Position numbers and translations under genes: made by a program. From an uncultured Planctomycetota bacterium (GTDB lineage: Bacteria > Planctomycetota > Planctomycetia > Gemmatales > HRBIN36), in NCBI GenBank assembly GCA_937944855.1, contig CALFAY010000048.1:29446-93445 (forward strand): a stretch of DNA of 64,000 bases. The letters are read 5' to 3'. Positions within the stretch are counted from its first letter, which is position 1. Each line of letters begins with the position of its first letter. Shown piece by piece: positions 10,801-44,337 of the stretch. The notes under the pieces are model-generated. The model was given only the letters and a program-made list of their open reading frames with translations, searched no databases and was not told the origin of the DNA.

Positions 10801-11083
10801 CGAGAACCTGACAAGCGAGCCGGGCAAGAAACCGACCAAGGCACTGCGAATCCTCGGACAGGGTCAGAATGCCATCGGCGTTCGCCTGCCCCTGCCCGAA
10901 TTCCTGGGAGGCACGCTCTTCGACCTGAGAATCGTCGTGTTCGAGGGCACGGTCATCGAACTGAAAGCCGTCGTGTGCGATCTGTGCAATCAGCCGCCCG
11001 ACGGCCTGACGGCGTGCGTTCGGGCTTGCCCTCACGAGGCGACCCGCCGCTTCGATGCCCGCAATGGAGTGATCGTCTGGTGA
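7817..11083 (+). CDS. Cyclic-nucleotide-binding-domain protein fused to an NrfC/DmsB-type four-cluster [4Fe-4S] ferredoxin
   Basis: ATGA start/stop overlap with the cytochrome gene. There are two cNMP phosphate-binding-cassette-like motifs (GEMACIDRQPRTATV, GEIGLMLDEPRSATC). There are four Cys clusters: CVRCDECVRAC, CRSCVDPVCMIPCP, CIGCEKCAKNCP and CDLCNQPPDGLTACVRACP. I see no signal or Tat motif. Confidence 0.85.
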   Translation: MNPLRFASAAHDGEVLHKLPPRSGDIEIAAESLTKLLGLFRNIKANLGLKTNPDAIRLRHYDPGDIICSRGEPGNSAFYLLPAEDLAALIAYLSQHKPGQQSDNGHDHSQSVLTTLERVRQASENRKRLAAEAQRLYAELESLESALAESGDTQRAALYARCRLIGPITKLVKAELLRDQEPQLAALLGRLAEVEEQRRVAVARVPTAPLAVRRRRSFWQRLLGGWIASDAESEPAPLSIPNDGPAEIDYDSGEASLYEDEVLGEMACIDRQPRTATVEVVKECFVLEMLRPILDNMRKDPAYRKKLDDKYRERVLELHLRALPLFKDLDASLIARVRREADLEPYEAGTLICDQYERSDALYLIRSGTVKVMQNVSALVSQADVSDWNAVRCLNPDCDGPFLLARQRLWERLPSDLVESVRSAVPLDAKTRQQVLDAVNDLIRDPLLLRDPAVRSACETADVHGQTWRQLVKAEYAKPETLAGLNRVLLAAALLGKPPTWRLTPAQPSPILPPPLGPGDITDWKTLVGDLEPSTRKADHPATAAARWLWEQLPVEVQNRIRLAKTGQSVNPEDAARIVDALNAIAEKSFLLLEPEFQDLIGSDVNLQALLMLLRHDGQKWTDHAWRRFSRLRNRLLLHALYPGWLGAEYRSPGQPLVLAYRGRGDFIGEIGLMLDEPRSATCVAYNHPDNDPNREVGPVQIVRISKELFETLRDKSPTFRRRIEETVQERLANTRRSQREAARAARQRTTPLDAVAEQLGISQGQRLMLIDLDRCVRCDECVRACVAAHDDGVSRLFLDGPRFQQQVGESIRTFLAPTTCRSCVDPVCMIPCPVGSIVRGDQGQILIRDWCIGCEKCAKNCPYGAIQMHPAGLIPARSSAWRLLPAWKVPAQQLDWTTAEYRDRHWMPIQTPVLYDREFLARLGRIPDGPKPAAVCFRHQFSVDVSRHLGAEAKFRLVISPLRAGTQLWINGKEVTDLEAKKGEGVRELELDRGENLTSEPGKKPTKALRILGQGQNAIGVRLPLPEFLGGTLFDLRIVVFEGTVIELKAVVCDLCNQPPDGLTACVRACPHEATRRFDARNGVIVW

Positions 11084-29063: not shown

Positions 29064-29174
29064 CTGGCACGGTCAGGGAAATCAACCAACTCGAAAAGGC
29101 AGCGACCTAGCCGCAAGCAACCTTCAAGGAGATGTAGAACCCAAACCATGAAGCGACAATCCCCAGCCCCATCG

Positions 29175-29909
29175 CTATCTATTTCGCTTCCGCCCGATGA
29201 AGCGATAATACGGCACCTGGAACCCGGGCAGGTACGGCATCCGTGCCCAGTGCTCCGAAAAGCTGACGGTCTCGAAGCGGCGCTCCAGATAGGGAACGTG
29301 GTCTGGTGAAGGATAAACGTTATCGACATTGAACCAGATGGGCCAGAAGGTCCGGGTGAACCAGGTATGTCGTCGGTGGGCTGCGACCGTGTGCTTCCGC
29401 GAGACGTAAAAATCAACCACGCCGATGTGACCGCCGGGGGAAAGCAGTTCCAAGGCGTGGTCTATGGCGGCGAACCAGTCGGGAATCATCGTCAAGGAAT
29501 AGGAAAACGTGATAACATCCGCCCGTCCTTCCGGCGGCACGAACGTGATGGCGTCCGCCAGGACAGGTTCGACGTTGCTCCAGCCCCGACGGGTCACGCG
29601 GTCACGGGCGACTTCCAGCAGGGAAGAGGCTAGGTCCACGACGTAGATCTTGCGTAAAGCGGCCAACCGATCGACGATGAATTCGAGGTTCTGTCCGGTG
29701 CCTCCGCCCATGTCGATCCACACCCCGCCTTCGGGAAGCGGCAGCTCCCGCAGCATCTCCTCTCGGCCACGCAACAACCGCTTGCGGAAATCATCGTAAT
29801 GGGCGGCCTGATGACGATAGAAGCTGTCGAGCCGCTCGGCATGGTTCCTGCCGCGAATCGGGCTGAGAGTCAGATGGTAGAGGACTTTGAGATCAGCCAG
29901 CAAAGACAT
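29175..29909 (-). CDS. btaB: SAM-dependent N-methyltransferase, BtaB-like (betaine lipid DGTS synthesis)
   Basis: 'LDSFYRHQAAHYDDFRKRLLRGR', the SAM motif 'IDMGGGTGQN', 'VITFSYSLTMIPDW' and 'VPYYRFIG' are as in BtaB. It lies directly downstream of a BtaA-like gene. Confidence 0.8.
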   Translation of the reverse strand: MSLLADLKVLYHLTLSPIRGRNHAERLDSFYRHQAAHYDDFRKRLLRGREEMLRELPLPEGGVWIDMGGGTGQNLEFIVDRLAALRKIYVVDLASSLLEVARDRVTRRGWSNVEPVLADAITFVPPEGRADVITFSYSLTMIPDWFAAIDHALELLSPGGHIGVVDFYVSRKHTVAAHRRHTWFTRTFWPIWFNVDNVYPSPDHVPYLERRFETVSFSEHWARMPYLPGFQVPYYRFIGRKRNR

Positions 29910-29953
29910 CCGGTGCCCTCACGACGCGGGTGGATCGAGTCCGGAAAACGTTG

Positions 29954-31153
29954 CTAGGCGAGAGCCAGGTCGGCGATGTAGAAGCTGCCGTAAGTGTGGA
30001 CTCGATCTTTGGCGTGCAACTCAGCCGCCAGATCCTGATGATACCGCAGAAGGTCGCCGACGCGGTAACAACGGCCCTGCACCTCGACCTTGAGGGGATC
30101 GACATACTCGACCTTCAGCCCTCCGCTGCGCCACAGGATGCGGGCATCGTGGGTGGCTCGATTGACAATAGCCTGCCATTCGCGCTCCAGTTCCCCGTGT
30201 CGGAATGTACTGAGCCAGTCCATGTGGTCCAGCAGCACGAAACGGGAGATCTTGCCGTCATGGTTGTCGAGGAACTGCTGCAACGATCCCGTGTGGACGC
30301 TGATGCGGTCGAGCAGGCCGTTGCGGAGACGATGAAAGTTGTCTTCCTTCAGATACTCCGGACAGCACGTCCGTGAGTATTCGCCAGTCAAATACACACG
30401 CCAAAAGTAATTGTCCCAGATGGGCAGACAGGCGAACACGGCCTCGACGCAGTCTTCGATGTACTTGGCGATGCCGCCCTGATAATAGCGTTCCACCTGC
30501 TGCCGCTGCGGTCGGGGCACACCGACGAAGGACAACGTCGTGTCCCTGCCGATCATCCAGCGGACGAATCGCTTCCAGACCGCGTCTCGAAGCTCGCCGA
30601 AGTAAATGCTCTGCTGTTCATCGAGCGAGGTGGCTGCCAACAGACGGCTGACGGCGTCCCGGACGCGGGCGATGCGGTCGATGTAGAAATTGGCCAGTCG
30701 GGCAAACGTCCCAGAACTGCCGTGAAAATAAAAGCTGTTCCTCCAGCCGCCCGGATCGAAGAAATTGATGTGCCTGTCCCAGTATTCTGCCGCTTGCGGG
30801 CTGAGACCGGGCCGCAGATACTCCCGATAGATGGTCCGGTAATTCCGCAGTCTGCCCCGGCCGAACATCTCGAAGAAGGTTTCAAAATCGAGATGCCGGA
30901 TGCCGACGATCTTCAGTTCGAGCAGGGCATTCTGCCGGGGATTCATGTCCACCGCGTAGATGTGCCGGGGTGCCAGCAAGGCGTAGTCCAGGACGTTGCA
31001 GCCGGCGGAAGTAAGGACGGCGATGGTGTCGTCCGGCCCCAAATCGAGGGCGACGCGATCCAGCCGCGGATCCTCCCAGCAGGTATTGTACACCAGGTTA
31101 TTTCCATGCACAAAGGAGAACCACCGACCGCTAAGCCAATCTCCGCGCAACAT
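29954..31153 (-). CDS. btaA: S-adenosylmethionine:diacylglycerol 3-amino-3-carboxypropyl transferase, BtaA-like (DUF3419)
   Basis: The 'VYNTCWEDPRLDRVAL...VLTSAGCNVLDY' N-terminal block is typical of BtaA/DUF3419. ATG 31153 has a 'GAGG' RBS 5 nt upstream. The alternative start is 31285 (the track start). Confidence 0.8.
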   Translation of the reverse strand: MLRGDWLSGRWFSFVHGNNLVYNTCWEDPRLDRVALDLGPDDTIAVLTSAGCNVLDYALLAPRHIYAVDMNPRQNALLELKIVGIRHLDFETFFEMFGRGRLRNYRTIYREYLRPGLSPQAAEYWDRHINFFDPGGWRNSFYFHGSSGTFARLANFYIDRIARVRDAVSRLLAATSLDEQQSIYFGELRDAVWKRFVRWMIGRDTTLSFVGVPRPQRQQVERYYQGGIAKYIEDCVEAVFACLPIWDNYFWRVYLTGEYSRTCCPEYLKEDNFHRLRNGLLDRISVHTGSLQQFLDNHDGKISRFVLLDHMDWLSTFRHGELEREWQAIVNRATHDARILWRSGGLKVEYVDPLKVEVQGRCYRVGDLLRYHQDLAAELHAKDRVHTYGSFYIADLALA

Positions 31154-31320
31154 AGAAACCTCGAACGCAGGGCGGCCATGCTTGCGTGAAAGCCGCCGAG
31201 GGAGTCGCCGATCCGCGATGAACCGGGGAATCGGAGGGATGGTCCCAAGCACGATCAGAATACGGATCTGACTTGCCAAGAGCAAACGAAATCATGGGGC
31301 AAAGCTGGGTGAGGGTCGAA

Positions 31321-32244
31321 TTAACGTCCTGCTCCCGGCAAGACCACCGTATGGTCCGTATCCGAATCGCTAAGAGTGCGGACCTGGACGCGGGAGAAAA
31401 TGTTCTGCAATTCCTTGAGATACAGGTTCAACAGGAGGCTCTCCGAGGAAGAATCGTGGGGATGATACTGCTCCAGCAGGGCGAAAAACGCCGCGGCCTC
31501 GGCCTCTGCCTTGCGAACCCGGTCTTTGGACGCCGCTCGAGCTTCACTGACAATTCTGCGGGCCTGCTGCTGAGCGGACGAGATTTCGATCTGGCTGGCC
31601 CCCAGGGCCTCGCGTTCCGTGATCTCTTTCTGAGTGCGCGCCCGATTGACCTGACGAAAGGCCTCGGCCAGTTCGGCCGGAGGCTGAACATAAGTAAGGT
31701 TCACGCTTTCGATGACGATGCCAAGCCGATACCGTCGGATTTCTGCGGACAGCAGCTGCTGAATCCGCGACTCCAGGCCGCCTGCCTGTCCCAAGAGCAC
31801 GGCATCGACCCGCTCCGAAGCCAACGCCCGGCTCAAGGCGGCCTCAGCAGCCCGTGGCAGAACCTCCGAGGCTTTATCGGCATTGAGCACGTAATCCGCG
31901 ACGGCTCCCGGAGTTTCACGGTCCACTCGGTAATAGACGCTGATCCGGACGTCGATCAGATTGTTGTCCCCCGTGAGGAGTTGACCGGCGGGAACGCTGT
32001 CCTCAGGAAGAGGCAAATCCGGCAGGAAACCCACTCCCAGCTGTCTTTGCGAATCGACGGCGATGCGGTCCACGCGGTCCAGGCCCCAGGGCAGACCGAC
32101 GTTGAGGCCGGGCAGTCGCGGCTGTTCGAGCACCCGACCGAAACGGCGGACCACTGCCAATTCACCCGGCTTGACCTGGTAAATACCCGTTGCCAGGTAG
32201 GACAAACCCACGATTAATAGAAGCAGATACAGCCAGCGTCTCAT
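31321..32244 (-). CDS. SPFH/band-7 protein, HflK-like
   Basis: N-terminal TM followed by '[42 protein letters not shown]', then a coiled-coil A/E/R-rich region. ATGA overlap with the upstream SPFH gene. Confidence 0.8.
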   Translation of the reverse strand: MRRWLYLLLLIVGLSYLATGIYQVKPGELAVVRRFGRVLEQPRLPGLNVGLPWGLDRVDRIAVDSQRQLGVGFLPDLPLPEDSVPAGQLLTGDNNLIDVRISVYYRVDRETPGAVADYVLNADKASEVLPRAAEAALSRALASERVDAVLLGQAGGLESRIQQLLSAEIRRYRLGIVIESVNLTYVQPPAELAEAFRQVNRARTQKEITEREALGASQIEISSAQQQARRIVSEARAASKDRVRKAEAEAAAFFALLEQYHPHDSSSESLLLNLYLKELQNIFSRVQVRTLSDSDTDHTVVLPGAGR

Positions 32245-33335
32245 CGGGAAGGCCCCCCAGGGTTGGCTGGCGAAACGGCCGATTCGTTGGACGCAGGGTT
32301 CGCCTTGTCCTCCGCCGATCGAGCAGTTCCGCGGAGTCCGGCTCCTGGAGAATTTCCTGGCTTGGGCAAGTCTTTCAATAAGGAAAGCAAAGGATGGTCC
32401 AGCGACAGAATGATCTGCGTCTTATCGTCGCCGAACATCTGGCGATAGCCTTCTAACATGCGAATGGTACGGTAGAAATCGGGGGCCTCCTTGTGGGCGT
32501 CGTTGAGGATTCGCGCTGCGTCGGCCCGAGCCTGGCCTTCGAGGCGGATGCGTTCGGCCTCGGCTTCCGTCCGGATTCTTCGAGCGGCAAGTTCCCCTTC
32601 GGCACGGATCCGAGCCGCTTCGACTTCCCCCTGCAATCGGTAATTGTTCGCTTCCCGTTTGCGGTCCTCCCGGATTTTGGCGAAAATCTCGTCCCGCACT
32701 TGGACCGGATGGTTGAACCGCCGCAGACGGATGTCCACCAGATCAATACCGACCTGCTGCGTTCTGTCGGCCAGGCTGATCGGCTTTTCCTCCGGACCGG
32801 TTCCCCGGAGATAGGGTCGGTTGCGCACTTGGTCGAGCAGTTCCCCGATGCGTAACTGCTGCACCTCGGTATTGACCAATTGGTTTAACAGCAGACTGCT
32901 AAGCTCGACTTTGAGGCGGCTGATGATCTGGCTGCGAAGGAAGTCCTGGGCGCGCTCCAGAGTACCGAAGTTCCGGACGAAGAGATCGACAGTATCCCGC
33001 TCGGCTGTCGGTTCAGCGATCCGCCAGCAAACGTAGACGTCGAAGGTGAGCGGCAGCGGCTTCTCGGTGCCGGACTGTTCGTCCCGGTCGCGAATGAGCA
33101 TTTCCTGCGTGGGCACGTCGAAGAACTGAAGCCGACGATCCAGGCGAAGCACATCCTGGATCGGCCAGGGTGCTTTCCAGTGCCAACCGGCTTCGCTGGC
33201 GCCGTCGTAGGTAGCGACCTGGGCGCCGAACTGCGTCACATAGACGAACTCGGCCTGGTCCACGAAGACCACGGCACTGTAGGCCGTCCAGGCCAGTGCG
33301 CCTGCCAAAACGATATGCCAAATGCGCGGTCTCAT
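32241..33335 (-). CDS. SPFH/band-7 protein, HflC-like
   Basis: N-terminal TM, 'VFVDQAEFVYVTQFGAQV' and 'GIDLVDIRLRRFNHP', then a long 'EAEAERIRLEGQARADAARI' coiled-coil region. Confidence 0.8.
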   Translation of the reverse strand: MRPRIWHIVLAGALAWTAYSAVVFVDQAEFVYVTQFGAQVATYDGASEAGWHWKAPWPIQDVLRLDRRLQFFDVPTQEMLIRDRDEQSGTEKPLPLTFDVYVCWRIAEPTAERDTVDLFVRNFGTLERAQDFLRSQIISRLKVELSSLLLNQLVNTEVQQLRIGELLDQVRNRPYLRGTGPEEKPISLADRTQQVGIDLVDIRLRRFNHPVQVRDEIFAKIREDRKREANNYRLQGEVEAARIRAEGELAARRIRTEAEAERIRLEGQARADAARILNDAHKEAPDFYRTIRMLEGYRQMFGDDKTQIILSLDHPLLSLLKDLPKPGNSPGAGLRGTARSAEDKANPASNESAVSPANPGGPSR

Positions 33336-33401
33336 GGCGTCACCTTGATTGTTTTCTCATCGCCCGCTACCGCTTCTTCGCCCGCAGCGAGGCACCAAAA
33401 C

Positions 33402-36400
33402 TTACGGCCCTTCCGTATCTCGCTGAGGTTCCCGTCGGGTGCGCGGCTCAGCGTCCCGGCCCCCGATCGGAAGACGCAGGCGGAGACCTTCAGGGAGGAC
33501 ATGAAGTTGCCCTTTCCATCGGTCGTCCCGGATGACTTTGGGTCGGCCTTTAAGCGTTTCCTCTGCCGCTTCAAGGTGCAGCCGGAAGGTTGTCAACTGA
33601 TTGCGTACCTCCGGGTCCTCCCGCAGCAGGTCGAATGCGATCATCTGAGCGTTCAGTTGCGCCGGGGTCAGCCCAGGAGCGATGGGGAAGCAGAATCCGG
33701 AAATCCAGCCGACCCGTTGAGAGGCGAGCAGGCTGAGAAAGGCGGTTCGATCCGCCTCGGTCTGGGTCACGACGGCATGCCTCTGCGCCTCGGCTGCGGA
33801 ACGGACGCGGTACTCAGCGGCCTTTTCCCGTGCGATGCTTGTCTCACTGTCGCTTTTGGCCTCGACGAGCATCTGCTCGCGCTGGCTCAAGGCCCGGGTG
33901 ACGGCGTAATAGGCATCGACGACCTGAGCCGGGGGATGGAGGTCTTGAACTTCCACGGAGTCGATGGCGATGCCTAGATCCTGGTTGCCGCGCAGCAATT
34001 GCCGCAACTGCCCGGCGACTTGCTGTTGCACCTGCTCCCGTCCGCCCGCGAGCAAATCGGCAAAGGCCCGCTCAGCAATTGCCTCACGCAAGAGAGCCTC
34101 GGTCATGGCCCGCACAACGCCTTCAGCATCGTTGACGGTGAACAGGTACTTGCGGGGATCTTCGGGTCGGTAGAACACACGAGCCTTGACTTCGATCAGG
34201 TTGCCGTCTCCGGTAATCATCAGAGCCTCTTCTTCGAGGCGAAGGATTCCCTGAGCATGCACTGCGGACCAGGTGAGTTCCCCCGCCAGAGGCCCAAACG
34301 CCCGGAAGCCGATGTCAAGAGAACGCAGACGCCGCGGTTCGATCTTCGTCACCTTCTCCAACGGCCAGGGCAAACGAAAATGCAATCCTGGCTCCAGGTC
34401 CTCGGGCAGAACCCTTCCGAAACGCCGGACGATTCCGATCTGATCCGGGCCGATCACCACGATCCCGCTGGCGACATAAAGCAGCACAATCAGACCAGCC
34501 GTTCCTCCCAGGACCGCTTTCCAGTGGTCTAGGAAGAAGTGACTCACCTCGTGGAAACTGAGCCGCTCAAGCCAGGTGTCGAACCGGGACACATAGGTCC
34601 GCCAGCGTCGCACGGCAGCCGAGTCCCGGGTGCGTTCAAAGGCCAACAGCCGCATGGCATTCAGAAGCACAGCCAAGGATGCCGCCTGGTGGTAGATCGC
34701 GGCCCAGATCGGTGAAGCGTGGCGGGCCTGCTCCGACCATCCTGGAACGATCCAAGCCGTCAAGACCACACCGACGATGTTGACCACGAAGGCGAACCAG
34801 ACGATATTCTGCTGGATGACGGCGACGGTCTGCCGAGCAAGTCGGACCAGGAAAGGCAACGACGCCAGGGGTTGTCGCAGCAAGACGATGTCCCCTGCTT
34901 CGGCGGTCACGTCGATCCCGCCCAGAGCGAGACCGACATATCCCGTCGCCAAGGCCGGCGCGTCGTTGATGCCATCGCCCACCATGGCCGGGCGACGCCC
35001 CTGCCTGCGTTGATTCTCCAGCCAGGCCGCCTTATCGGTGGGCAGAAGCTCGGCATGAAATTCGGTGATTTCCAGTTCCCGAGCGACTGCTTCAGCAACA
35101 GCCTGGCGGTCGCCGGTAAGCAAGGCGATGTCGTGGATGCCCATGCGGCGCAATTCTTGAAGCACCTCGGCCGCTTCGGGCCGAACCGTGTCCCGTACTC
35201 CCAGCACTCCGACAACCTGACCGCCCTGGGCCACGAGCAAAGCCGTTTCCCCTGCGGCGTCCAACTGGCTCAGGATCGTCTCCAGCTCCCCGGGAAGCGA
35301 CAGATGGTGCCGCTCCATCAAACGGCGATTGCCCACGATCACTTGTTGGCCCTGGACCGTGGCCGAGACTCCCCCTCCGGGATGCGATTCGAAGTGCTCC
35401 ACCTCAGGCAAGGTCAGTCCCCGGTTTCGGGCTTCCTGAACGATGGTCTGGGCGATGACGTGTTCGCTCCGCTGTTCTGCTGCCGCGGCCAGGCGCAGCA
35501 GCTCCTGGGGACTCACTTCAGGTGCCAGGACGACGATGTTTCCCAGGCGAAGCTGCCCGGTGGTCAAGGTGCCGGTCTTGTCGAAAGCAAACAGGTTGAC
35601 CTCGGCCAGTCGCTCCAGGGCCGAGCCGCCTTTGATGAGGATGCCACTGCCGGCCAACCGGCCCAAGGCAGCGATGATGGCGGCGGGAGTGGCGAGGATC
35701 AGAGCGCAAGGACAGGCGACCACGAGCACGGCCAAGGTCGGAAAAACCGCCTTGTACCAGCCGCCATCTTCCTGGCGAAACCACCAGAGATTGGCCAGGA
35801 AAGTGATCAGGGCCAGACTGAGGACGACAGGTAAGAACCAGCGGGCAAGGCGGTCGGCCGTCCGCTCCAGAGGAGCTTTGTCCCGCAGGGCGCGGGCGGT
35901 AATCGCCAGCACCCGGCCCATGACGGTATGCTCGGCGATCCGCTTGACTTCGATGATCAGCGCGCCGTGTTGATTGAGCGTTCCAGCCAAAACCTCAGAA
36001 CCCGGCCCCTTCTCGACGGGCAGACTCTCGCCGGTCAGGACGCTCTCATCGACCGCGGAAGCGCCCTCGACGACGACGCCGTCCACGGGAATCCGTTTGC
36101 CGGGCCGGACGAGGATGCGATCTCCAGCTTTCAACTCCGCCACGGAGGTTTTGACCGGCTCGCCATCGCGTATCAGCCAGCACAGCTGCGGAGTCAGTTC
36201 GACCAGCCGGGTGATGGCCCGTTTGGTCCGGTCGAAGGTGAAGGCTTCCAGGCACTCGCCGATCAGTCCGATGAGGATGACTTCGGCAGCGACCAGCGGT
36301 TGGTTGATGAGAATGGCAGCAACGGCGGCGATAGCCAGGGCCAGATCGGCCCCGATCCGCCCTGCGCTCAGACTCTCCAGAGCGCCGTACAAGGCCCGAG

Positions 36401-36632
36401 CGGAGCCGAGAATCGCAGCGATCAGCGCGAACCGCCAATGAGTGCCGAACAGCGTCAAGCCGCTGTCCAAGATCGGAAGCTCGACGCCCAGCCACGGTGC
36501 CAGCCAAAGGGCCAGCGGATCCCAGGCCAGATCAAGGAAAAGAAGTGAGCCGACTAGGAGCGTAAGGAGATAAAGGCCCGCCTGACTGGCGCGTCCGAGG
36601 ATCGGATCGACGTGGGAAATCTCCCGGTGCAT
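33402..36632 (-). CDS. P1B-type (CPC) heavy-metal-type P-type ATPase fused C-terminally to an HflK-like SPFH/band-7 domain
   Basis: ATPase motifs TGES ('LTGESLP'), '[11 protein letters not shown]', 'DKTGTLT' and '[10 protein letters not shown]'. After two more TMs and a linker TM, an SPFH domain follows: '[40 protein letters not shown]...[19 protein letters not shown]...[12 protein letters not shown]'. Confidence 0.85.
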
Positions 36633-36744
36633 GCCGCGTAGCCCTGTCAGGCATGAGAGAGGTCGCGCTGCGGGTGGAACAGTCTCAGGCTACGCCAAGC
36701 ATGCTGCTCCGTCAAGAAAAGCGGCTGTCGGGAGGTAGGCGGGA

Positions 36745-36888
36745 TCACCGCCAGGGGCGAATCTTCGGCTGCACGGCGTGGCAACGGCGGCAGCGGACCT
36801 TCTTGCGGTTGATCGGCTTGCCGCACTTGGGGCAGCGCTTCTGCTTCAGGAGCTTGACATACTTGGTACGAGGACGAACCTGGCCCAT
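36745..36888 (-). CDS. Unannotated 47-aa highly basic zinc-ribbon protein (CxxC...CxxC)
   Basis: My own translation gives MGQVRPRTKYVKLLKQKRCPKCGKPINRKKVRCRRCHAVQPKIRPWR*. A 'GGAGGG' RBS lies 7 nt upstream of the ATG. It is too short for the ORF track. It is co-directional with the ATPase gene and 113 nt upstream of it. Confidence 0.55.
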   Translation of the reverse strand: MGQVRPRTKYVKLLKQKRCPKCGKPINRKKVRCRRCHAVQPKIRPWR

Positions 36889-37635
36889 AGGCGGTCCCTC
36901 CGCACATTATGTCGAATCGCAGCCGAGCAGTTTGTTTATCGCCACTGCCGCTGCCGGACAAGGCCCTCAGCCGGTGAATCGGTCTTGTCTATCAGAAGTA
37001 GAAAACCCTCTGGCTTCGTTCCCGATTTTGGTTGCAAGGTGCAGAGCCGGAAAGTAACTAGGAATTGGTTCACTCCAGAAAATAGTTGCATTCATTAAAA
37101 ATTGCCGTGGAACTTTCAAAAGTTCTTCAAAGACGAAATGAGAGAAAGATCCTAGGCTGAAAGATCGTCAGGATCGTTACAACCGAAATCTGTGGCGAAC
37201 CTATGTGGTTCTGTAAGGCCGCAATTTTTTTGACGCGGCATGACACCGGCCTAGGTCTCGAGGATACGTCGCAAGCGTAACGGCGATCCTGGAAATCCAG
37301 GCTTCGATCCTGACGACCGCAAGTACGGCGACGGCCTGAGAAGGATGCTTGGGCAAACGGGGAACTTTCCGATGAGCGGAAAGGCGACACGGAAGTTGGC
37401 AAGGGAATCACCCACGGACCGGTGCTTGCCGGCGTTCTTGGATTGGGGTCTGTCGTAACCCACGGGGACGGAGTCTGCGCCGAGATCGGCAAAGAGCGAA
37501 GCAGGTCTCAGATGCTACGCGAAGACCGTGCCGCGAGGAGAAAGTGAAGGCAGGACGCCTTCGGAAGCTGGACTTGTACGTCTGCCCGACGGATGCGGGT
37601 ATGACGGGGACGCCCGGGAGCCGCGAGGCGGATCG

Positions 37636-39183
37636 ATGCCTGTGACGGAAGTCTGGGCTTTTTGTCTGGCCTTGCTGGCTGCTCTCGCCACGGTGCCGAT
37701 GGCGAGGTGGACATCCCGTCGCTGGGGGCTGGTCGATCACCCCGACGGCCATCGAAAGATGCATCGCCAACCCATCCCCCTTGCAGGTGGCATTGGCATT
37801 CTCACAGCCCTCGTACTGGCAGTCCCGGCCCTGGTCATATTGCGGCATGTTTCCTTCGTCGATGCCGTTGCAGCCACGAATCCAAGTGTCGCACTGGGCA
37901 CGCTGGCGGCAGTCGTTCTTCTGATGGCGATAGGGATTGCCGACGATTTCCGGCTGCTTCGGGGAAGACACAAGCTGCTGGGTCAGATCTTCGCTGTCGG
38001 CATTTTGCTGCTGTGTGGTTGCGTGGTGCGACGGATCAGCCTTCTCGGGTTCGAGTTCGACCTCGCGTTTTTGTCATACCCGTTCACCGCTTTCTGGCTG
38101 CTTGGTGCGATCAATGCCTTTAACCTGCTTGACGGCATGGACGGATTGCTGGGCACAATCTCAGGTTTGGCTTCGATGGCGGTAGCAGTCGTTGGCGTCC
38201 TCGCGGGGGATGTCCTTTTGGCCATCGCAGGTGCCCTGCTGGCCGGGGCGATTGCTGGCTTTCTCAAATACAACCTGCCGCCTGCCAGCGTATTCCTCGG
38301 AGACTCGGGCAGCATGGTGCTCGGGCTCGTGGTCGGCTTGCTCATCCTGCGGGCTTTCACGGTCGAATCGGCTTCGTTCTCCTTATTGCCGGCCCTGGGG
38401 TTGGTCTGCATTCCGGTCGCCGATACCGCCGCAGCGATCCTACGCCGGACGCTGACCGGCCGAAGTCTGTATGCGACGGATCGAGGCCACATCCACCACG
38501 TACTCCTGCGCCGGGGCAGCAACACCTGGCAGGTATTGGCCATCCTCGGCGGACTTTCGTTGGTGGCTGTACTCGGCTCGATCCTCAGCGTGGTCCTGGG
38601 GGCTGACTACCCCGCCGCCTGTGCTGCGATCGCTGTGGCAACGGTGTTGTTGGCCGGGGGGTTATTTGGCCGATCTGAATTGAAACTGCTTGGCAATCGC
38701 TTGCGGCACGGCTTGGCTTCTTTCCTCCGCGGCCCGGGCCAGGATGCCGCCCGCGAATTGCAGGTTCACATGCACGGCACCGCGGCTTGGCATCAGTTGT
38801 GGCGGGAACTCACCGAGTTCGCTGCCCAGTCGAATCTCCAGAGCATCCGTCTGGATGTCAGCCTGCCAGCCCTGCATGAGGAATATCATGCCCGGTGGGA
38901 CCGGCCCCATGCCACGGATGAGGTGCGGGACTTGTGGGCCACCACCGTCCCGTTGATGGCCGGGGGCCAACTCATCGGCCGCCTGGAGATTCGCGGCCGA
39001 CGGGATGATGTGCCCGTGTGTGATAAGATTCTGCAAGTCGCACGCTTCGTCGAAAATCTGGAGCGTACTGCCGCAGCTGCTCTTCCCGCTTCGTCTCCGA
39101 CGCTGCTTTCCCTTCCGGACTCTCGTCCAAGCGGTAACGGAGACAGGGACAGACAAGGTCAGGTTTTCGCAGTTTCAGACTAG
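37636..39183 (+). CDS. WecA/MraY-family polyprenyl-phosphate hexose(N-acetylhexosamine)-1-phosphate transferase with a ~170-aa C-terminal extension
   Basis: 'DHPDGHRKMHRQPIPLAGGI', 'NAFNLLDGMDGL' and 'VFLGDSGSMVLG' are signatures of this family. ATG 37636 has a GAGG RBS. The track start 37528 is unlikely. Confidence 0.85.
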   Translation: MPVTEVWAFCLALLAALATVPMARWTSRRWGLVDHPDGHRKMHRQPIPLAGGIGILTALVLAVPALVILRHVSFVDAVAATNPSVALGTLAAVVLLMAIGIADDFRLLRGRHKLLGQIFAVGILLLCGCVVRRISLLGFEFDLAFLSYPFTAFWLLGAINAFNLLDGMDGLLGTISGLASMAVAVVGVLAGDVLLAIAGALLAGAIAGFLKYNLPPASVFLGDSGSMVLGLVVGLLILRAFTVESASFSLLPALGLVCIPVADTAAAILRRTLTGRSLYATDRGHIHHVLLRRGSNTWQVLAILGGLSLVAVLGSILSVVLGADYPAACAAIAVATVLLAGGLFGRSELKLLGNRLRHGLASFLRGPGQDAARELQVHMHGTAAWHQLWRELTEFAAQSNLQSIRLDVSLPALHEEYHARWDRPHATDEVRDLWATTVPLMAGGQLIGRLEIRGRRDDVPVCDKILQVARFVENLERTAAAALPASSPTLLSLPDSRPSGNGDRDRQGQVFAVSD

Positions 39184-39209
39184 TTGGCCAATCGGCTTGG
39201 GAGTTCGCG

Positions 39210-41597
39210 ATGTCGTCTCCGGATCACTCGGATTTCATGCCGATCGAAGAAGATTCCGGCCCTTCGCAATTGCAGCAGCTTTTGGGGCTGGCCTGGCGAC
39301 GCAAGGGATTGATCACGTTTGGTTTGGCAGTCGGACTGGTCATTGGCGCGATCTATTACGCCCAGTGCTCGCCGGTGTATCAATCGCAGGCTCAGTTGTT
39401 GGTGGTCAAAAAGCGGCCTGACGCCCTGCCCGTCACTGGCCTGGACACCCGCTACTCGACGCTGAGCTTCACGGAAGATTACCTGGCGACCCACATTGTC
39501 CTGATGCGCAGCCCGTTGATCGTCGGTCGCGCTGTACAACGGCGGAATCTGGCCAATCTGCCGTCATTCCGGGGACAAAGCGACCCGGCAGCAGTCATTC
39601 CCCAAGCCCTCAAGGTGACGCGCGACACGAAGGAGTCCGGCGTCAGTGCCAGCAACATCCTTTACCTGTCCTACGAGGGACCAGTTCCCGAAGATTGTGC
39701 GGCCGTCATCAACGCGATCGTGGCCAGTTACCGCGAATTCCTGGACGAAGCCTACCGCTCCATGAGCAACGAAACCGTGGAACTGATCACTCAGGCGAAG
39801 AATTACCTCCAAAAGGACCTCAAGGACAAGGAAGAGGCCTATCACCAATTCCGCGAGAAAGCTCCGGTGCTGCTGAAGGGGAAAGGCGGCTTCGGTCTGG
39901 GGCAGGAGCGGATTGCCTCGCTGGAAAACCGTCAGGTGGCCATCCTGATCCGCAAGGCAGAACTGGCAGCGAAATTAAATGCCCTCGACGACGCCGTGAA
40001 AAACGGGAAGAGTCCGACTGCTGTGCGAGCCTTGGTCGCCGACCTGATGCGGCGTGGTCCCAGCGACGGCACGTCGTCCGGCTTTGTTTCCCCAGGACGA
40101 AATACATCTCGGGCCGTGGAGGAGCAACTGCTTCCGCTGCTGCTTCAGGAACAGGCCCTTCTGGAGAATTACGGTCCCGATCATCCGCAGGTGATCTCCC
40201 TGCGTCAGCGGATCACTTTTACGAGAAAATTCCTCAACGATCTGACTGATGTCTCCAGCGATCCTGAGTCTCCGGAAGCAGCGGAGGAAAGAGCACGGCT
40301 TCGCGATCCGGTTCATCGTTTCCGCTTGCTTCTGGTTCAGGAGCTTCAGGAACTCCAGGCCGAGGAAGAACAGATCGCCGCGGCGTTGAAGGCCGAACAA
40401 GAACAGGCTAAGGCCCTGCTTAAGCTAGATCTCGAGGAAGAGTCGCTACGCAATGACGTGGTGCGGACGCAGCAGTTGTATGAGAACGTCATCAAGCGGC
40501 TTCAGGAAATCGACCTGGGCAAGGAAGGCGGTGGCTTCGAGGCCCGGTTGATTTCCCCGCCGAATCCCGGCATTAAGGTCGCTCCCCGGGCCATTCCCAT
40601 TTTCGCGGGAGCCATGCTCGTCGGCCTCGTCGTCGGAGCGGGGCTGGCGTACCTTGCCGAGTTCCTGGACAAGAGTTTCCGGTCGCCGGAGGAGATCCGT
40701 CGCCGCCTGCGTCTGCCGCTGATCGGCCATATACCGGTGCTCCCGCATGCGGACCGCCCAAGTGCCCTTGGCAGCCGACTGGATGGCAGTTTGGTGGCCT
40801 TTCATCGTCCACGGTCCCTGGAAGCCGAGGCCTATCGCAGCGTGAGGACGGCCCTGTATTTCAGTACCCAGGGCGAACGGCACAAGGTCATCCAAATCAC
40901 CAGCGCCAGCAAAGGCGAGGGCAAATCGACCTTGGCGGCCAATCTCGCCATTTCCATCGCCCAGTCGGGCCGCCGGGTGGTGCTGGTAGATGCCGACCTG
41001 CGGCGGCCCCGGATTCACATTCTTTTCGGACTGGAAAACCAACGAGGACTCTCCGACATCGTCCGCGGCGAGGCCGAGTGGAAGGAACTGGTCCAATCGA
41101 CGGCCTGCCCGAATTGTCTCGCGATCACTTCCGGCCCGATTCCTGCCAATCCCGCAGAGCTTCTGACCATGCCGCGTTTCCAGGAACTGGTCAATGCTTT
41201 GCGCGACGAGTTCGATTTCGTCCTGGTGGACAGTCCCCCCTTGTTGGCCGTCACCGATCCGTGCGTTGTCGCTCCCCGAGTGGATGGAGTGATTCTCGTC
41301 CTGCGATTGTCCAAGCAATGTCGGCCCTTGGCGGAGCGATCCCGGGAGATCCTCCTGTCCCTGGGAGCCCATGTTCTCGGCGTCATCGTCAACGGCCTGG
41401 GCCGCAAGGGCAGCTCCGCCTACGGGTATGTTCAGGACTCCTACGTCTACAGGTCGGACTACATGCCGCCGCAGCCGGAAGAAGAGGACATCTACGAGTA
41501 TTTCCAGGCGGATGACTCGGCGAACAGCAATGGCAAAGCTTCCAGCGCGGCGAAAACCGAGAAGGACGGTAACCCCGCCCCGGTCACTCGTTCCTAG
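39210..41597 (+). CDS. Wzc/GumC-type polysaccharide co-polymerase fused to a BY tyrosine autokinase
   Basis: Wzz-like N-terminus with TM, a long coiled-coil periplasmic region and a second TM. Kinase Walker A is 'SASKGEGKST', A' is 'VVLVDADLRRP', and B is 'DFVLVDSPPLL'. The C-terminal tail is Tyr-rich: 'SSAYGYVQDSYVYRSDYMPP...IYEYF'. Confidence 0.9.
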   Translation: MSSPDHSDFMPIEEDSGPSQLQQLLGLAWRRKGLITFGLAVGLVIGAIYYAQCSPVYQSQAQLLVVKKRPDALPVTGLDTRYSTLSFTEDYLATHIVLMRSPLIVGRAVQRRNLANLPSFRGQSDPAAVIPQALKVTRDTKESGVSASNILYLSYEGPVPEDCAAVINAIVASYREFLDEAYRSMSNETVELITQAKNYLQKDLKDKEEAYHQFREKAPVLLKGKGGFGLGQERIASLENRQVAILIRKAELAAKLNALDDAVKNGKSPTAVRALVADLMRRGPSDGTSSGFVSPGRNTSRAVEEQLLPLLLQEQALLENYGPDHPQVISLRQRITFTRKFLNDLTDVSSDPESPEAAEERARLRDPVHRFRLLLVQELQELQAEEEQIAAALKAEQEQAKALLKLDLEEESLRNDVVRTQQLYENVIKRLQEIDLGKEGGGFEARLISPPNPGIKVAPRAIPIFAGAMLVGLVVGAGLAYLAEFLDKSFRSPEEIRRRLRLPLIGHIPVLPHADRPSALGSRLDGSLVAFHRPRSLEAEAYRSVRTALYFSTQGERHKVIQITSASKGEGKSTLAANLAISIAQSGRRVVLVDADLRRPRIHILFGLENQRGLSDIVRGEAEWKELVQSTACPNCLAITSGPIPANPAELLTMPRFQELVNALRDEFDFVLVDSPPLLAVTDPCVVAPRVDGVILVLRLSKQCRPLAERSREILLSLGAHVLGVIVNGLGRKGSSAYGYVQDSYVYRSDYMPPQPEEEDIYEYFQADDSANSNGKASSAAKTEKDGNPAPVTRS

Positions 41598-41640
41598 AGC
41601 CGCTCTGCGTAGTCTTTGAGCCGGTGGGCAAGGAGAAGGC

Positions 41641-42432
41641 GTGATTCCCCTGGTGGACGTACATTGTCACCTGCTTGCTGGTCTGGACGACGGACCCGCT
41701 ACGCGCCAAGCCGCCCTGGAGATGTGTCGCATGGCTTACGCCGAGGGCGTCCGCTGGATCGCGGCCACGGCACATCAGAACGACCACTACCCCGACAATT
41801 CGCCGGAGCGGATTCGTTCAGCCAGCCGGATGCTTGCCGATGATCTGCGGCGGGAAGGATTGGCACTGACCGTCGTGCCCTCCGCAGAAATCGTGGTGAG
41901 GACGGATATCTGCGAAGCCTGGCAACGCCGAGAATTGCTCTCAGTTACCGACCGTGATCGTTATCTGCTCGTGGAATTGCCGCACGGTTTGTTCGTCGAG
42001 ATCGGCTTTCTCGTGCGGCAACTTCGGCATGTTGGCGTACAAGTCATCCTCGCTCACCCAGAGCGACACGAAACTCTTTTGCACACTCCCGGGTTGATCG
42101 AGGACCTGATCGCCGAAGGGTGTCTGGTGCAGGCGTCGTCGGACAGTATCACGCGTCCGCGCTCCAAGGCCGATCAGCGTGCGTTGAAGCACTGGGCCAG
42201 ACGCGGCATCATCCATCTGCTCGGCTCAGACGGCCACAACGCAACGACCCGACCGCCGCGCATGGCTGCTGCCTATGAGCAACTGGCGACCTGGGCAGGA
42301 ATGGCCTACGCCGATCGCGTGTGCAGCAGCCACAGTCTGGCCGTGCTTCAAGGAGTCCCCGTGCGAGTCAAGCCGCCCGCTAACAACCGTTCCTGGTTCG
42401 CGTGGTGGCAAACGGCATGGTCGCGGCGATGA
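41641..42432 (+). CDS. PHP-family protein-tyrosine phosphatase (CpsB/YwqE-like)
   Basis: GTG start with an 'AAGGAGAAGG' RBS. 'IPLVDVHCHLLAGLDDGP', 'TAHQN', 'ILAHPER' and 'LGSDGHN' are metal-ligand motifs of CpsB-type phosphatases. Confidence 0.85.
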   Translation: MIPLVDVHCHLLAGLDDGPATRQAALEMCRMAYAEGVRWIAATAHQNDHYPDNSPERIRSASRMLADDLRREGLALTVVPSAEIVVRTDICEAWQRRELLSVTDRDRYLLVELPHGLFVEIGFLVRQLRHVGVQVILAHPERHETLLHTPGLIEDLIAEGCLVQASSDSITRPRSKADQRALKHWARRGIIHLLGSDGHNATTRPPRMAAAYEQLATWAGMAYADRVCSSHSLAVLQGVPVRVKPPANNRSWFAWWQTAWSRR

Positions 42433-42440
42433 CTGGCCGA

Positions 42441-43763
42441 CTATGGCAGCGTCCCCGTTACCGTGCCCTGACCGTCCTCGGCATTGATAAACCGCCCAAA
42501 CAGGCTGAAGCGGAACTGGAAGCTCAGGTAACGAAGCAGAGCTTCGGTCGGCTTCTCTTGCAGGATCAGGAAATCGCCCGGCTGCACGAGAATCCGTTCG
42601 CGAGGATCGTTGAGCGCTCGGTTGAGATCGACGCGGATAGGAATCTGCTGGCCAGTGGGCAGACGGCGAATGACCGTCAACTGGCTCGGCGACGGAAAAC
42701 CCAGGCCCGACAAAAGCAGACTTCCTGTTAGGTTATTCCCTTGGATGCCGCCGCTCACTAACGGGCCGCCTACCCGAACGACGGCTTCGACAACATCGAG
42801 GTCGTAATCGCGCGGCAGGATGTGTTCTCCCGGCGGAAGCAGACCGCCGGTGTAAAACACCTCGGTATCCCGGGCACGGATGAAGACGATGTCGCCGGTG
42901 CGCAGGACGATGTCCTCAGGAGTGAAAGGCGGCTCAACGCCGGGGGGCAGCCTCAGAGGAATTCGGATGGTATGGATGCCTGGCAGGTCGAGGATCGGCT
43001 TGCGACCCGCGTCCGCCCACAGGGACATCTCCTGCTTCAACCGCTGGGAGTCGCCCTCGGCTTTGAAGTACCCGCGTTGGATGAAGATCTCGTTTTCGGC
43101 GTCGAGTCCCGGAAGGCCGCCAGTCTGGGCCAGGGCATTCAAGACGTCATTCTCGTAGGCTGGGAGATCCACGACGCTGCCGGTTCCTCGCTTGGTGTTG
43201 CCGATCAATCCCGCCTGATTGACCAGCAGCCCACCGGAATCTTCGCGAATGACCAAGACGCTGTACGTCCTTGGCCGAAGCAACGTGACGATGATGCGTT
43301 CCCGTTCCGGACGCAGAATCTGCTTCTTGACTGTGTAGGCGTGCCTGATGGCGTTTTCAGCTTCGATCAAGGTCATGCCTTGGACTTTGATCGGGTCGAC
43401 CAGGGGAACCGAAATGGTGCCGTCCTCGCGGACGGGAACCGGATAACCGATGGCTGGCGGTAAACGGCCTCGTTCGGTCAAGCTTACTGGCGGAGTCTGG
43501 TTCTGTTCTCCCAGGACGCCTTCGATCCAGACGCCCAACACGTCGCCGGGTTCGAGAATGTATTTTTCGGGCGGCTTTTGACGAAGCAGACTCAGGGGTA
43601 CAGGTTGATCGGTTTCGCGAGGACGGGCCAGAAACTGAGGCGGAAGCCGCCGCACCGGTACACCGTTGGCCACCGGATTGCTCACGGCCGCGCAGCCGCT
43701 CGACAGCAAAGCGACAACCAAGAGCACAAGCAGCGACGCAAAGTGCCCTCGAATGTCACTCAT
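42441..43763 (-). CDS. Wza-like outer-membrane polysaccharide export lipoprotein (Poly_export + SLBB domains)
   Basis: Lipobox 'LLSSGCAAV' after ATG 43763. 'YILEPGDVLGVWIEGVL' is Poly_export-like. There are repeated SLBB-like units ('LRTGDIVFI', 'VQPGDFLIL'). Confidence 0.8.
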   Translation of the reverse strand: MSDIRGHFASLLVLLVVALLSSGCAAVSNPVANGVPVRRLPPQFLARPRETDQPVPLSLLRQKPPEKYILEPGDVLGVWIEGVLGEQNQTPPVSLTERGRLPPAIGYPVPVREDGTISVPLVDPIKVQGMTLIEAENAIRHAYTVKKQILRPERERIIVTLLRPRTYSVLVIREDSGGLLVNQAGLIGNTKRGTGSVVDLPAYENDVLNALAQTGGLPGLDAENEIFIQRGYFKAEGDSQRLKQEMSLWADAGRKPILDLPGIHTIRIPLRLPPGVEPPFTPEDIVLRTGDIVFIRARDTEVFYTGGLLPPGEHILPRDYDLDVVEAVVRVGGPLVSGGIQGNNLTGSLLLSGLGFPSPSQLTVIRRLPTGQQIPIRVDLNRALNDPRERILVQPGDFLILQEKPTEALLRYLSFQFRFSLFGRFINAEDGQGTVTGTLP

Positions 43764-43797
43764 TCTCGTGAGCCGCTCCGGGTCGTGCATGCGTTGG

Positions 43798-44337
43798 TCA
43801 CTCAGGGTTATTCGGAATCTCTTTGGGCGGATTCGGTAAAGCCTCGCCATCAAGCTGCGTATCTGTTTCACGGGACTCTTGCCGCCGAGAATAGGCATTT
43901 AGATCGGAGGGCGGAATCGGCGTCGGCAGTACGATGAACTCACGGTAGCCGCTCTGGGCGGCGAGAGCAGCTCCATGACGAAACCCAGCGAACCAGTCTT
44001 GCATGGCGGCATGGCCCTGGGGAGTCTCGTAGCGAACGCCCCAGTACTTCCGAGGCGGCACCGGCGGCGGAGCTCCCGTTCCCCCGGCGTTAAGGTAATC
44101 CACAAAACCTTGGCGAAATCCCTCGGCGTAATGCACGCTGAACTCGACTCCCGGGTACTCCTGCATGACGGACTTCCATGCAGCAACCGCCAAGGTTTCG
44201 TTGCGCTTGGCTTCCAAGCATTCCAGCGTGTACCCCGCGATCGGCTCGACCAGTAGATTTCGCGCTCCTGTCAAAAGGAGACAGCCCGAGCCGGGAAACA
44301 GAGCTGCCGAAACGATCAACAACCGCCAGAGCTTCAT
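43798..44337 (-). CDS. Hypothetical lipoprotein
   Basis: 'MKLWRLLIVSAALFPGSGCLLL' is a lipobox-type signal (ATG 44337; alternative 44349 or 44424). It lies directly upstream of wza-like, co-directional. I recognise no family. Confidence 0.5.
   Translation of the reverse strand: MKLWRLLIVSAALFPGSGCLLLTGARNLLVEPIAGYTLECLEAKRNETLAVAAWKSVMQEYPGVEFSVHYAEGFRQGFVDYLNAGGTGAPPPVPPRKYWGVRYETPQGHAAMQDWFAGFRHGAALAAQSGYREFIVLPTPIPPSDLNAYSRRQESRETDTQLDGEALPNPPKEIPNNPE

Follow-up and report, generated by a model that had tools for sequence, protein, structure and literature searches.

A P1B-type ATPase continuous with an HflK-like SPFH protein, encoded beside HflC-like and HflK-like partners in Gemmatales and other bacteria

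A 64,000-nucleotide stretch of DNA from an uncultured Planctomycetota bacterium of the order Gemmatales (GenBank assembly GCA_937944855.1, contig CALFAY010000048.1, positions 29,446 to 93,445), called the window below and numbered from its first letter, encodes on its minus strand a protein in which a P1B-type metal pump runs on into an HflK-like SPFH protein. The gene (33402..36632) is a single unbroken open reading frame (ORF) of 1076 amino acids plus a stop codon, with an ATG start, and specifies in order a P1B-type ATPase, a linker, a ninth transmembrane (TM) helix (TM9), and the HflK-like protein. Judged by its sequence, the product is a complete and apparently catalytically competent P1B ATPase continuous with a whole HflK-type protein, more than an SPFH domain alone. 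The fusion is part of a self-contained module of three genes, the other two encoding an HflC-like protein and a second, unfused HflK-like protein, and the fusion and its partner genes recur in at least five bacterial phyla. The best explanation, which we hold with a little better than even confidence, is that the three SPFH proteins co-assemble into an HflK/C-like ring that tethers several pumps. A preliminary description of the window, made from its letters alone, had already reported the uninterrupted ORF, the P1B ATPase core, the additional TM helix, and the SPFH domain with a coiled-coil tail, all of which held up; it had missed that the metal-site residues of the TM helices are non-canonical.

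Architecture of the fusion protein

Pfam models matched the fusion at residues 145-327 (E1-E2_ATPase, E 1e-54), 346-562 (HAD Hydrolase, E 2e-32), and 726-927 (Band_7, PF01145, E 3e-23, 83 bits against a cutoff of 23.6). Among NCBIfam models, the heavy-metal P-type ATPase family TIGR01525 scored 572 bits (cutoff 346.25), and the hflK family TIGR01933 scored 136.5 bits over residues 724-971, which is under its equivalog cutoff of 159.4. An AlphaFold2 (AF2) model of the full-length monomer, built from 30 full-length homologs and having a mean predicted local distance difference test score (pLDDT) of 74.6, places eight TM helices with the A, P, and N domains first, followed by the linker, TM9 at residues 704-721, an alpha/beta SPFH domain at 724-897, one long helix at 902-973, two helices at 990-1026, and a disordered tail. 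Foldseek searches with this model were swamped by P-type ATPases, and HflK became visible only with a second model covering residues 606-1076. A protein 100% identical to the fusion (P0028) was present in public collections, in a search of 5.8 billion proteins.

The best relative of known structure for the C-terminal 387 residues was Escherichia coli HflK (7vhp_E, E 2e-17), which matched in three collinear stretches comprising the TM helix with the start of the SPFH domain, the second half of the SPFH domain with the coiled coil, and, weakly, the C-terminal segment. Foldseek with the 606-1076 model likewise put the HflK chains of FtsH-HflK/C complexes at the top (9cz2_XA, E 3e-18; 7vhq_E, E 6e-18), followed by stomatin, HflC, prohibitin, erlin, QmcA, and flotillin. 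Pfam, the structural sequence match, and Foldseek together delimit the SPFH (Band_7) domain to residues 728-897 (33942..34451). Behind it lies a long coiled-coil helix at residues 898-973 (33714..33941), the element that forms the walls of SPFH cages, which appears as helix 902-973 in the full-length AF2 model and as helix 297-375 in the C-terminal model and aligns with HflK up to its residue 314. The remaining residues, 974-1076 with the stop codon (33402..33713), had been described as a C-terminal extension of about 110 amino acids. HMMER, alignments, and pLDDT indicate that this region is largely the ordinary HflK C-terminal segment, preceded by a lineage-specific insert and trailed by a disordered tail (pLDDT below 50 beyond residue 1027). 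The segment has a consensus of LTxFRL...GRxKV..D...L that is conserved in alignments of fusions, and its HMMER match to HflK residues 310-357 is weak, at 4 bits on its own. The layout of HflK is therefore reproduced throughout, with a single TM helix entered from the cytoplasm, a periplasmic SPFH domain, a long coiled coil, and, with that weak match, the C-terminal segment.

The boundary between the two halves lies somewhat earlier than first described: the ATPase core is complete, as stated, but the ATPase proper ends near residue 664 rather than near residue 690, and residues 665-703 (34524..34640) form a basic linker with predicted helices at 672-689 and 693-702 and an invariant H698. The alignment of fusions runs unbroken across TM6, this linker, and TM9. 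With 8 Arg or Lys residues in about 44 positions, the linker is consistent with a cytoplasmic location under the positive-inside rule as read from the sequence. TM9 (residues 704-727, 34452..34523), which Kyte-Doolittle hydropathy puts at about 708-727 and AF2 at 704-721, is the equivalent of the single N-terminal TM helix of HflK; together with the start of the SPFH domain it aligns with HflK residues 84-139. Pumps of the P1B type cross the membrane eight times and keep both termini in the cytoplasm, and native HflK is a single-pass protein with a cytoplasmic N terminus and a periplasmic SPFH domain. Since the chain leaves an eight-helix pump on the cytoplasmic side, TM9 carries it to the periplasm and the SPFH part is periplasmic, so that the topology of the fusion is compatible with that of native HflK.

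The SPFH domain of the fusion also carries a signature of its own. Alignments revealed a fusion-specific insertion of low pLDDT at residues 776-802 (34227..34307), following the IGFR strand and containing the motif W-x3-H, which in the window reads LTW788SAVH792. Both W788 and H792 are invariant in the 30 fusions that were aligned, the set to which invariance refers throughout. Other fused domains read YEWNIQH, YEWNVQH, LWESLH, or IEWESVH; the motif occurs in the fused domains of all lineages compared and is absent from the free HflK-like and HflC-like paralogs of the same loci. The loop is predicted to be periplasmic and, by homology with HflK, near the membrane surface, which would make it the obvious candidate for contact with the exit side of the pump.

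The pump occupies residues 1-664 (34641..36632) and is assigned as a P1B-type ATPase core with eight TM helices (MA, MB, and M1 to M6) and A, P, and N domains by TIGR01525 and by structure matches. Its eight TM helices, including MA and MB, were recognized both by hydropathy and as AF2 helices. The motifs TGES (at residue 200), CPC (307-309), DKTGT(LT) (351), and GDGINDAP (552) are all in place. TGES, DKTGT, and GDGxNDxP are invariant, which means that selection maintains the pump as a working enzyme. Among solved structures, the ATPase matched AfCopA (372 bits), LpCopA (350), sCoaT (327), and ZntA (311) by sequence, and Foldseek of the full-length model matched ZntA (4umw) with a TM-score of 0.88 normalized to the target. 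The fusion contains no HMA metal-binding domain; in its place is an N-terminal MHRE that is invariant in 30/30 fusions, with a family consensus of MHREISHxD. In one distant fusion (P0210, Planctomycetota, 1094 amino acids), MHRE is followed by the His- and Asp-rich stretch SHHHNDHDHDD, which resembles the zinc-binding DLHDHDH motif reported for PacL1 (PMC13460109).

The ligands of the membrane metal site are unusual. A motif search located CPC at 35706..35714, in surroundings ending (T/S)P that are kept in 30/30 fusions, and the Cys of the TM2 motif GECLE is invariant. Alignments to LpCopA and sCoaT identified the TM6 motif H648-Q649-A-A-S652 (34677..34691), of which H648, Q649, and S652 are invariant. 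Relative to LpCopA, Y688 and P694 of M5 are both replaced by V and N689 corresponds to N618, while in M6 M717 is replaced by H648 and S721 corresponds to S652. Relative to sCoaT, H657 corresponds to H648, E658 to Q649, and T661 to S652. His648 thus stands where CopA has Met and ZntA has Asp.

These residues were compared with the ligand sets of the classical subgroups. The P1B-1 (CopA-type, Cu+/Ag+) combination of Y-N-x4-P in M5 and M-x-x-S-S in M6 is absent. So are the M5 Lys and the M6 D-x-G of P1B-2 (ZntA-type, Zn2+/Cd2+/Pb2+); M6 here reads YHQAASL. P1B-4 pumps (Co/Zn/Fe) have SPC in M4, H-E-G-x-T in M6, and six TM helices, and the fusion has CPC together with MA and MB, so that on its sequence the pump resembles P1B-4 without being a member. 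For P1B-6-like pumps such as the zinc exporter CtpC, the hallmark is H-N-x-S/T, in the arrangement N-X18-H-N-X-(S/T) between TM5 and TM6 (PMC13460109). The window protein has N618-X29-H648-Q-X2-S652, whereas H-N-x-(x)-S does occur in P0227 and P0242, which are unfused relatives; the fusion is a neighbor of the P1B-6-like or CtpC-like group and not a member of it. The distant fusions have H-Q-x-x-S in M6, with H-E-x-x-T in Elusimicrobiota; the nearest unfused short CPC pumps have H-Q-x-x-S or H-N-x-(x)-S, and the sequence neighbors include a canonical SPC/HEGST P1B-4 pump as well. By these residues, the pump is a P1B ATPase that fits none of the classical subgroups and lies nearest the P1B-4 and CtpC-like divalent-metal pumps. 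Because H-Q-x-x-S in TM6 is like the P1B-4 HEGxT and CtpC-like HNxS/T motifs and unlike the M-x-x-S-S of CopA, the pump is more likely to transport a divalent transition metal (Zn, Co, Fe, Ni, or Cd class) than Cu(I). The departure of TM6 from both the CopA and the ZntA signatures also makes the database label "Cu+-exporting" doubtful.

Distribution and the three-gene module

One genome per species from 185,579 species was scanned with an alignment spanning ATPase TM5 to the C terminus. Relatives were found in 277 genomes, and the best 80 loci, all of which match from TM5 through the SPFH part, were analyzed. By annotation these are Gemmatales, Gemmataceae, or unclassified Planctomycetota, except for one labeled Isosphaera and a few bins that bear the names of other taxa. 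In 59 of the 80, a single unbroken ORF of 1031-1402 amino acids (median 1119, stop to stop) matches both halves; 14 loci are cut by a contig end, and frameshifts break up the other 7. These breaks lie within the ATPase, away from the junction, and MFD-series metagenome-assembled genomes (MAGs) account for five of the seven. In locus L001, from a KatS3mg105 MAG, the frameshift is at about residue 335. Breaks of this kind were noted in L001/L021, L014, L020, L060, L065, and L080, at some loci in the partner genes as well. We read the broken copies as assembly errors and not as true gene fission; they account for many fragments of 450-720 amino acids that appear in protein databases as "HAD+Band_7." In a further locus (L010, 3331-7536), one frame of 1402 amino acids has matches to the ATPase, to the SPFH part of the fusion, and to the HflC-like protein, reflecting either the fusion of all three or the loss of a stop codon; its bin is labeled Bacteroidales and looks like Gemmatales.

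Protein collections gave a consistent picture. When the complete fusion was searched against 5.8 billion proteins, each of the top 120 clusters (90% identity) combined PF00122, PF00702, and PF01145 in 1053-1148 amino acids. Together with the 59 unbroken loci and the alignment that continues across the junction, these exclude the frameshift or misassembly at that point for which the preliminary description had left room. An exhaustive HMMER search of 1.84 billion representatives at 50% identity returned about 60 full-length fusion clusters among its best 150, with lengths of 987-1301 amino acids and identities down to 34%. The phylogenetic spread that had been left to determine thus covers five phyla among the named sources: Planctomycetota (mostly Gemmatales), Elusimicrobiota, Candidatus Sumerlaeota, Acidobacteriota (Bryobacteraceae), and Candidatus Fervidibacterota; Armatimonadota contributed a partial sequence only. 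Databases do not agree on a name for these proteins, using "Cu+-exporting ATPase," "cation-translocating P-type ATPase family protein," or "FtsH protease activity modulator HflK," and each of these leaves out half of the protein.

The two SPFH genes that had been reported downstream of the fusion are both there and can now be assigned to types. Starting 66 nucleotides behind the fusion, an HflC-like SPFH gene encodes 364 amino acids (32241..33335, minus strand; Band_7 E 4e-15; TIGR01932 hflC 104.9 bits, below the cutoff of 134.4). Its stop is overlapped by 4 nucleotides by the start of a free HflK-like SPFH gene of 307 amino acids (31321..32244, minus strand; TIGR01933 132.6 bits). Within the window, the SPFH part of the fusion and the free HflK-like protein are paralogous, sharing 35% identity over 245 amino acids (E 9e-31). 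Partner genes were counted in those Gemmatales loci, 54 in all, that have 2.2 kb or more of downstream sequence: both follow the fusion in 39, the HflC-like gene alone in 6, the HflK-like gene alone in 1, and neither in 8, so that an HflC-like ortholog lies 3' of the fusion in 45 of the 54. In other lineages, five of seven loci have the order fusion-HflC-HflK (L084 from Sumerlaeota, L085, L086, L087 from Bryobacteraceae, and L089 from Planctomycetota). In L088 (Fervidibacterota) there is a single Band_7 partner, and in L083 (Elusimicrobiota) both partners are upstream, in the order hflC, hflK, cbiQ, cbiO, fusion. The partners in L083 to L086 score above the equivalog cutoffs, at 183-214 bits for hflC and 198-226 bits for hflK. 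A crude neighbor-joining tree of SPFH domains set the HflC type cleanly apart as one clade and placed all fused domains with the HflK type. Outside Gemmatales, the tree left the relation between fused and free K-type domains unsettled, and no claim is made about single or multiple origins.

Little else recurs around the module. All-against-all clustering of flanking ORFs from the 80 loci revealed no other recurrent neighbor, whether regulator, chaperone, or ftsH, and ftsH was absent both from the window ORFs covered by the Pfam scan and from the eight loci with called genes (L001 and L083 to L089); neither hflX nor ftsH is linked to the module. A riboswitch search of the upstream region (36400-37700) yielded nothing credible, and a promoter and terminator scan of 29000-37600 returned counts at the level of shuffled sequence.

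Two variations outside Gemmatales extend the module. In four loci a small fourth gene of 150-167 amino acids follows fusion-hflC-hflK (L085, 11026-11496; L086, 12240-12731; L087, 11867-12370; L089, 12102-12554). It encodes an N-terminal hydrophobic segment and a conserved DRNEVQ motif and has sub-threshold matches to DUF4878; its product may be a periplasmic fourth component, and hmmsearch located no counterpart in the Gemmatales loci or the window. In the Elusimicrobiota locus (L083, GCA_043826435, 2116-8982), cbiQ (TIGR02454, above cutoff) and a gene for a cbiO-like energy-coupling factor ATPase precede the fusion, an arrangement suggestive of a connection between the scaffolded exporter and cobalt-type uptake, and a weak hint toward a divalent metal.

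The proposed assembly and its alternatives

Under the co-assembly that we favor, the three SPFH proteins would form an alternating, HflK/C-like ring or cage at the inner membrane, on its periplasmic side. Fused subunits at some or all of the HflK positions would hold several pumps at one SPFH-delimited membrane patch, and the free HflK paralog probably fills other HflK positions, which would limit how many bulky ATPase headpieces each ring carries and ease their crowding. The HflK/C cage of E. coli has a 12+12 stoichiometry and a diameter of about 20 nm. The likely result would be clustering or stabilization of the pumps and control over their lipid and protein surroundings; more speculatively, the W-x3-H loop may touch the pump exit or take the released ion. 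Co-assembly is suggested because gene linkage is conserved and the oligomerization elements, the coiled coil and the C-terminal segment, are retained. The preliminary description had similarly proposed a pump physically built into an SPFH cage, which may entail compartmentalized or regulated transport.

Several points weigh against this picture. The AF2 models are of monomers, from which co-assembly is a step of inference, and the steric argument for the free HflK protein is a piece of reasoning from the dimensions of the E. coli cage. All three SPFH proteins of the window fall below the NCBIfam hflK and hflC equivalog cutoffs. In 8 of the 54 Gemmatales loci no SPFH partner is nearby, so that partners may be dispensable or encoded elsewhere, and the module is not accompanied by a metal regulator, chaperone, or riboswitch. 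The metal specificity turns on a few residues, and whole-protein scores are highest against CopA structures.

Some alternatives, not all of them mutually exclusive, bear on how such an assembly would work. One, plausible but rather unlikely, is that the fused HflK places the pump in an FtsH-HflK/C holoenzyme, where it would be shielded from FtsH or presented to it and the turnover of the exporter would be regulated. FtsH is the sole experimentally established partner of HflK/C and is held inside the cage (PMC12048511), the partner genes outside Gemmatales score as bona fide hflC and hflK equivalogs, and several fusions have been named "FtsH protease activity modulator HflK" by NCBI. A review of effluxosomes also raises the possibility that scaffolds protect metal transporters from degradation (PMC13460109). 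On the other hand, ftsH is not linked in the eight gene-called loci, among the window ORFs, or among the recurrent neighbors of the 80 loci, and a permanent covalent tether to a protease cage would be an odd means of controlling turnover. The reported FtsH contact of HflK, Arg191 (PMC12048511), could not be mapped onto the fusion, since the HMMER alignment numbering gives HflK Arg at 185 and 193 and leaves Arg191 unplaced. Coupling to FtsH is compatible with co-assembly of the three SPFH proteins and does not exclude it.

A different extension seems unlikely at present: the module may encode a dedicated, FtsH-independent SPFH cage, its client fixed genetically, in which a ring of pumps discharges a divalent metal into, or at the rim of, a periplasmic chamber, where the W-x3-H loops and, in some phyla, the DUF4878-like protein receive it. 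If true, it would give SPFH assemblies their first defined transport function and would be the first case of a primary pump as an integral cage subunit. Another reading, in which pumps inside the ring empty metal into the lumen of the SPFH dome and the loops or a client take it up for metallation or sequestration rather than detoxification, is improbable. It would give a role to the invariant, fusion-specific Trp/His loop in the periplasm beside the membrane, to the defined lumen that SPFH cages enclose (PMC12048511), and to the conserved small, probably periplasmic, DUF4878-like protein that follows the module in four non-Gemmatales loci. But placement of the pump inside as opposed to outside the TM ring has no support either way, nor has retention of ions by SPFH cage walls; one His per subunit makes a weak metal site, and the small fourth gene is missing from Gemmatales and the window.

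It is quite improbable that the SPFH part acts only within its own polypeptide, as a lipid sensor or autoinhibitor and without a large hetero-oligomer, the linkage of the three genes being incidental. Terminal additions to P1B ATPases are usually regulatory (PMC10654040), and the eight Gemmatales loci without adjacent partners would be explained. Against this, the full HflK oligomerization apparatus of long coiled coil and C-terminal segment is retained, partner linkage persists across phyla, once with altered gene order, and the SPFH domain lies across the membrane from the cytoplasmic regulatory domains of the ATPase. Lastly, an artifactual joining of a pump gene to an hflK gene by frameshift or misassembly is refuted by the conserved continuous ORF of 59 independent genomes and more than 120 protein clusters, the gene being in pieces in only a few MAGs (five of seven in the MFD series), with splits within the ATPase and never at the junction.

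Surroundings of the module and relation to known systems

Two small ORFs upstream of the fusion were considered and set aside. One of 104 amino acids (36647..36961) was rejected as a gene, having no Pfam match, a low-complexity translation, and no counterpart in L001. The other (36745..36888, minus strand), 112 nucleotides upstream of the fusion, encodes 47 very basic amino acids with a four-Cys zinc ribbon (CPKC...CRRC; weak Pfam DZR match, E 8e-4) and is gene-called in the identical contig L082; it was dropped as a candidate metal sensor or chaperone, as no other locus keeps it upstream of the fusion. Directly downstream of the module (29175..31285, minus strand) are genes for a DUF3419 protein (PF11899, E 2e-119) and an S-adenosylmethionine-dependent methyltransferase, which are not conserved beside the module elsewhere; DUF3419 is the BtaA-like family, which acts in betaine-lipid synthesis, and the pair would then be lipid related. 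Divergently upstream, beyond an intergenic region of lower GC content (37000-37500, 0.52), lies a polysaccharide-export set (37528..43898) with a GT4-family sugar-phosphate transferase, Poly_export, further glycosyltransferases, and a Wzz/GNVR-domain protein with a P-loop (BY-kinase-like). A protein of 1088 amino acids with cyclic-nucleotide-binding and 4Fe-4S dicluster domains, encoded at 7817..11083 (plus strand), is unrelated to the fusion.

Both halves of the fusion belong to well-known families, scaffolded pumps are known in concept, and public domain annotations show the architecture. What seems undescribed is a primary ion pump as a covalent, integral subunit of an SPFH assembly. No description of a P-type ATPase-SPFH fusion was found in the accessible full-text literature, which covers few subscription journals, so that an earlier mention is possible, and the reviews consulted on P-type ATPases and on prokaryotic SPFH proteins do not mention it; the statement in the preliminary description that there is no characterized example holds within that literature. 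How SPFH cages (HflK/C, prohibitin, stomatin, and flotillin) affect the membrane proteins they enclose is a long-standing question, in which clients have been loosely bound and hard to define. Here a well-understood and easily assayed pump is welded to a cage subunit and kept with both partners across at least five phyla, a system that allows direct testing of stoichiometry, placement inside or outside the ring, lipid effects, and functional consequences. It also defines a widespread clade of CPC/H-Q-x-x-S pumps whose specificity is predicted only.

In comparison with the HflK/HflC cage of E. coli (7vhp, 7wi3, and 9cz2), the C-terminal 370 residues of the fusion keep the HflK domain order, and HflC-like and HflK-like genes adjoin the fusion as in the hflKC operon. 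The cytoplasmic N-terminal tail of HflK is instead exchanged for a whole P-type pump of 664 residues, and the module has two HflK-type paralogs for each HflC type. The W-x3-H insertion is present in the fused copy, ftsH and hflX are not linked, and the window proteins score below equivalog level. The P1B ATPases CopA, ZntA, and sCoaT (3rfu, 4umv, and 7qbz) share with the fusion the catalytic motifs, eight TM helices, CPC in TM4, and the overall fold, with TM-scores of 0.78-0.88 normalized to the targets; the fusion differs in lacking an HMA domain and in having an MHRE N terminus, unusual TM5 and TM6 ligands, and an attached SPFH protein.

Association of SPFH oligomers with transport proteins has precedent (bioRxiv 10.1101/2025.08.30.673307). 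Stomatin associates with and modulates clients including ASIC, AE1, AQP1, and SLC carriers (PMC3433786, PMC5383999), and Foldseek of the fused SPFH part also retrieved aquaporin 1 bound to stomatin (PDB 9zd2). Stomatin, in contrast, is a homo-oligomer of the cytoplasmic leaflet that binds noncovalently, and its clients are channels or secondary carriers rather than a primary pump.

The closest parallel in concept is the effluxosome of mycobacteria, in which PacL scaffolds encoded beside CtpC, CtpG, and CtpV cluster and stabilize these P1B pumps in dynamic membrane domains (PMC13460109). As in the proposed assembly, P1B pumps are gathered and stabilized in discrete platforms by single-pass scaffolds encoded next to the pump, and CtpC is also a CPC pump with a His motif in TM6 (H-N-x-S/T), like the nearest unfused relatives of the fusion. 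PacL, a small DUF1490 protein, has a cytoplasmic domain and no covalent link to the pump, whereas the scaffold here is an SPFH protein, periplasmic and fused to it; no DUF1490 (PacL) gene lies next to the pump, the neighboring partners matching Band_7 only in Pfam. The likeness is therefore functional and not homologous, and by analogy the module would be a covalent, SPFH-based counterpart of the mycobacterial PacL-Ctp effluxosomes, giving metal biology a second, independent route to scaffolded efflux platforms.

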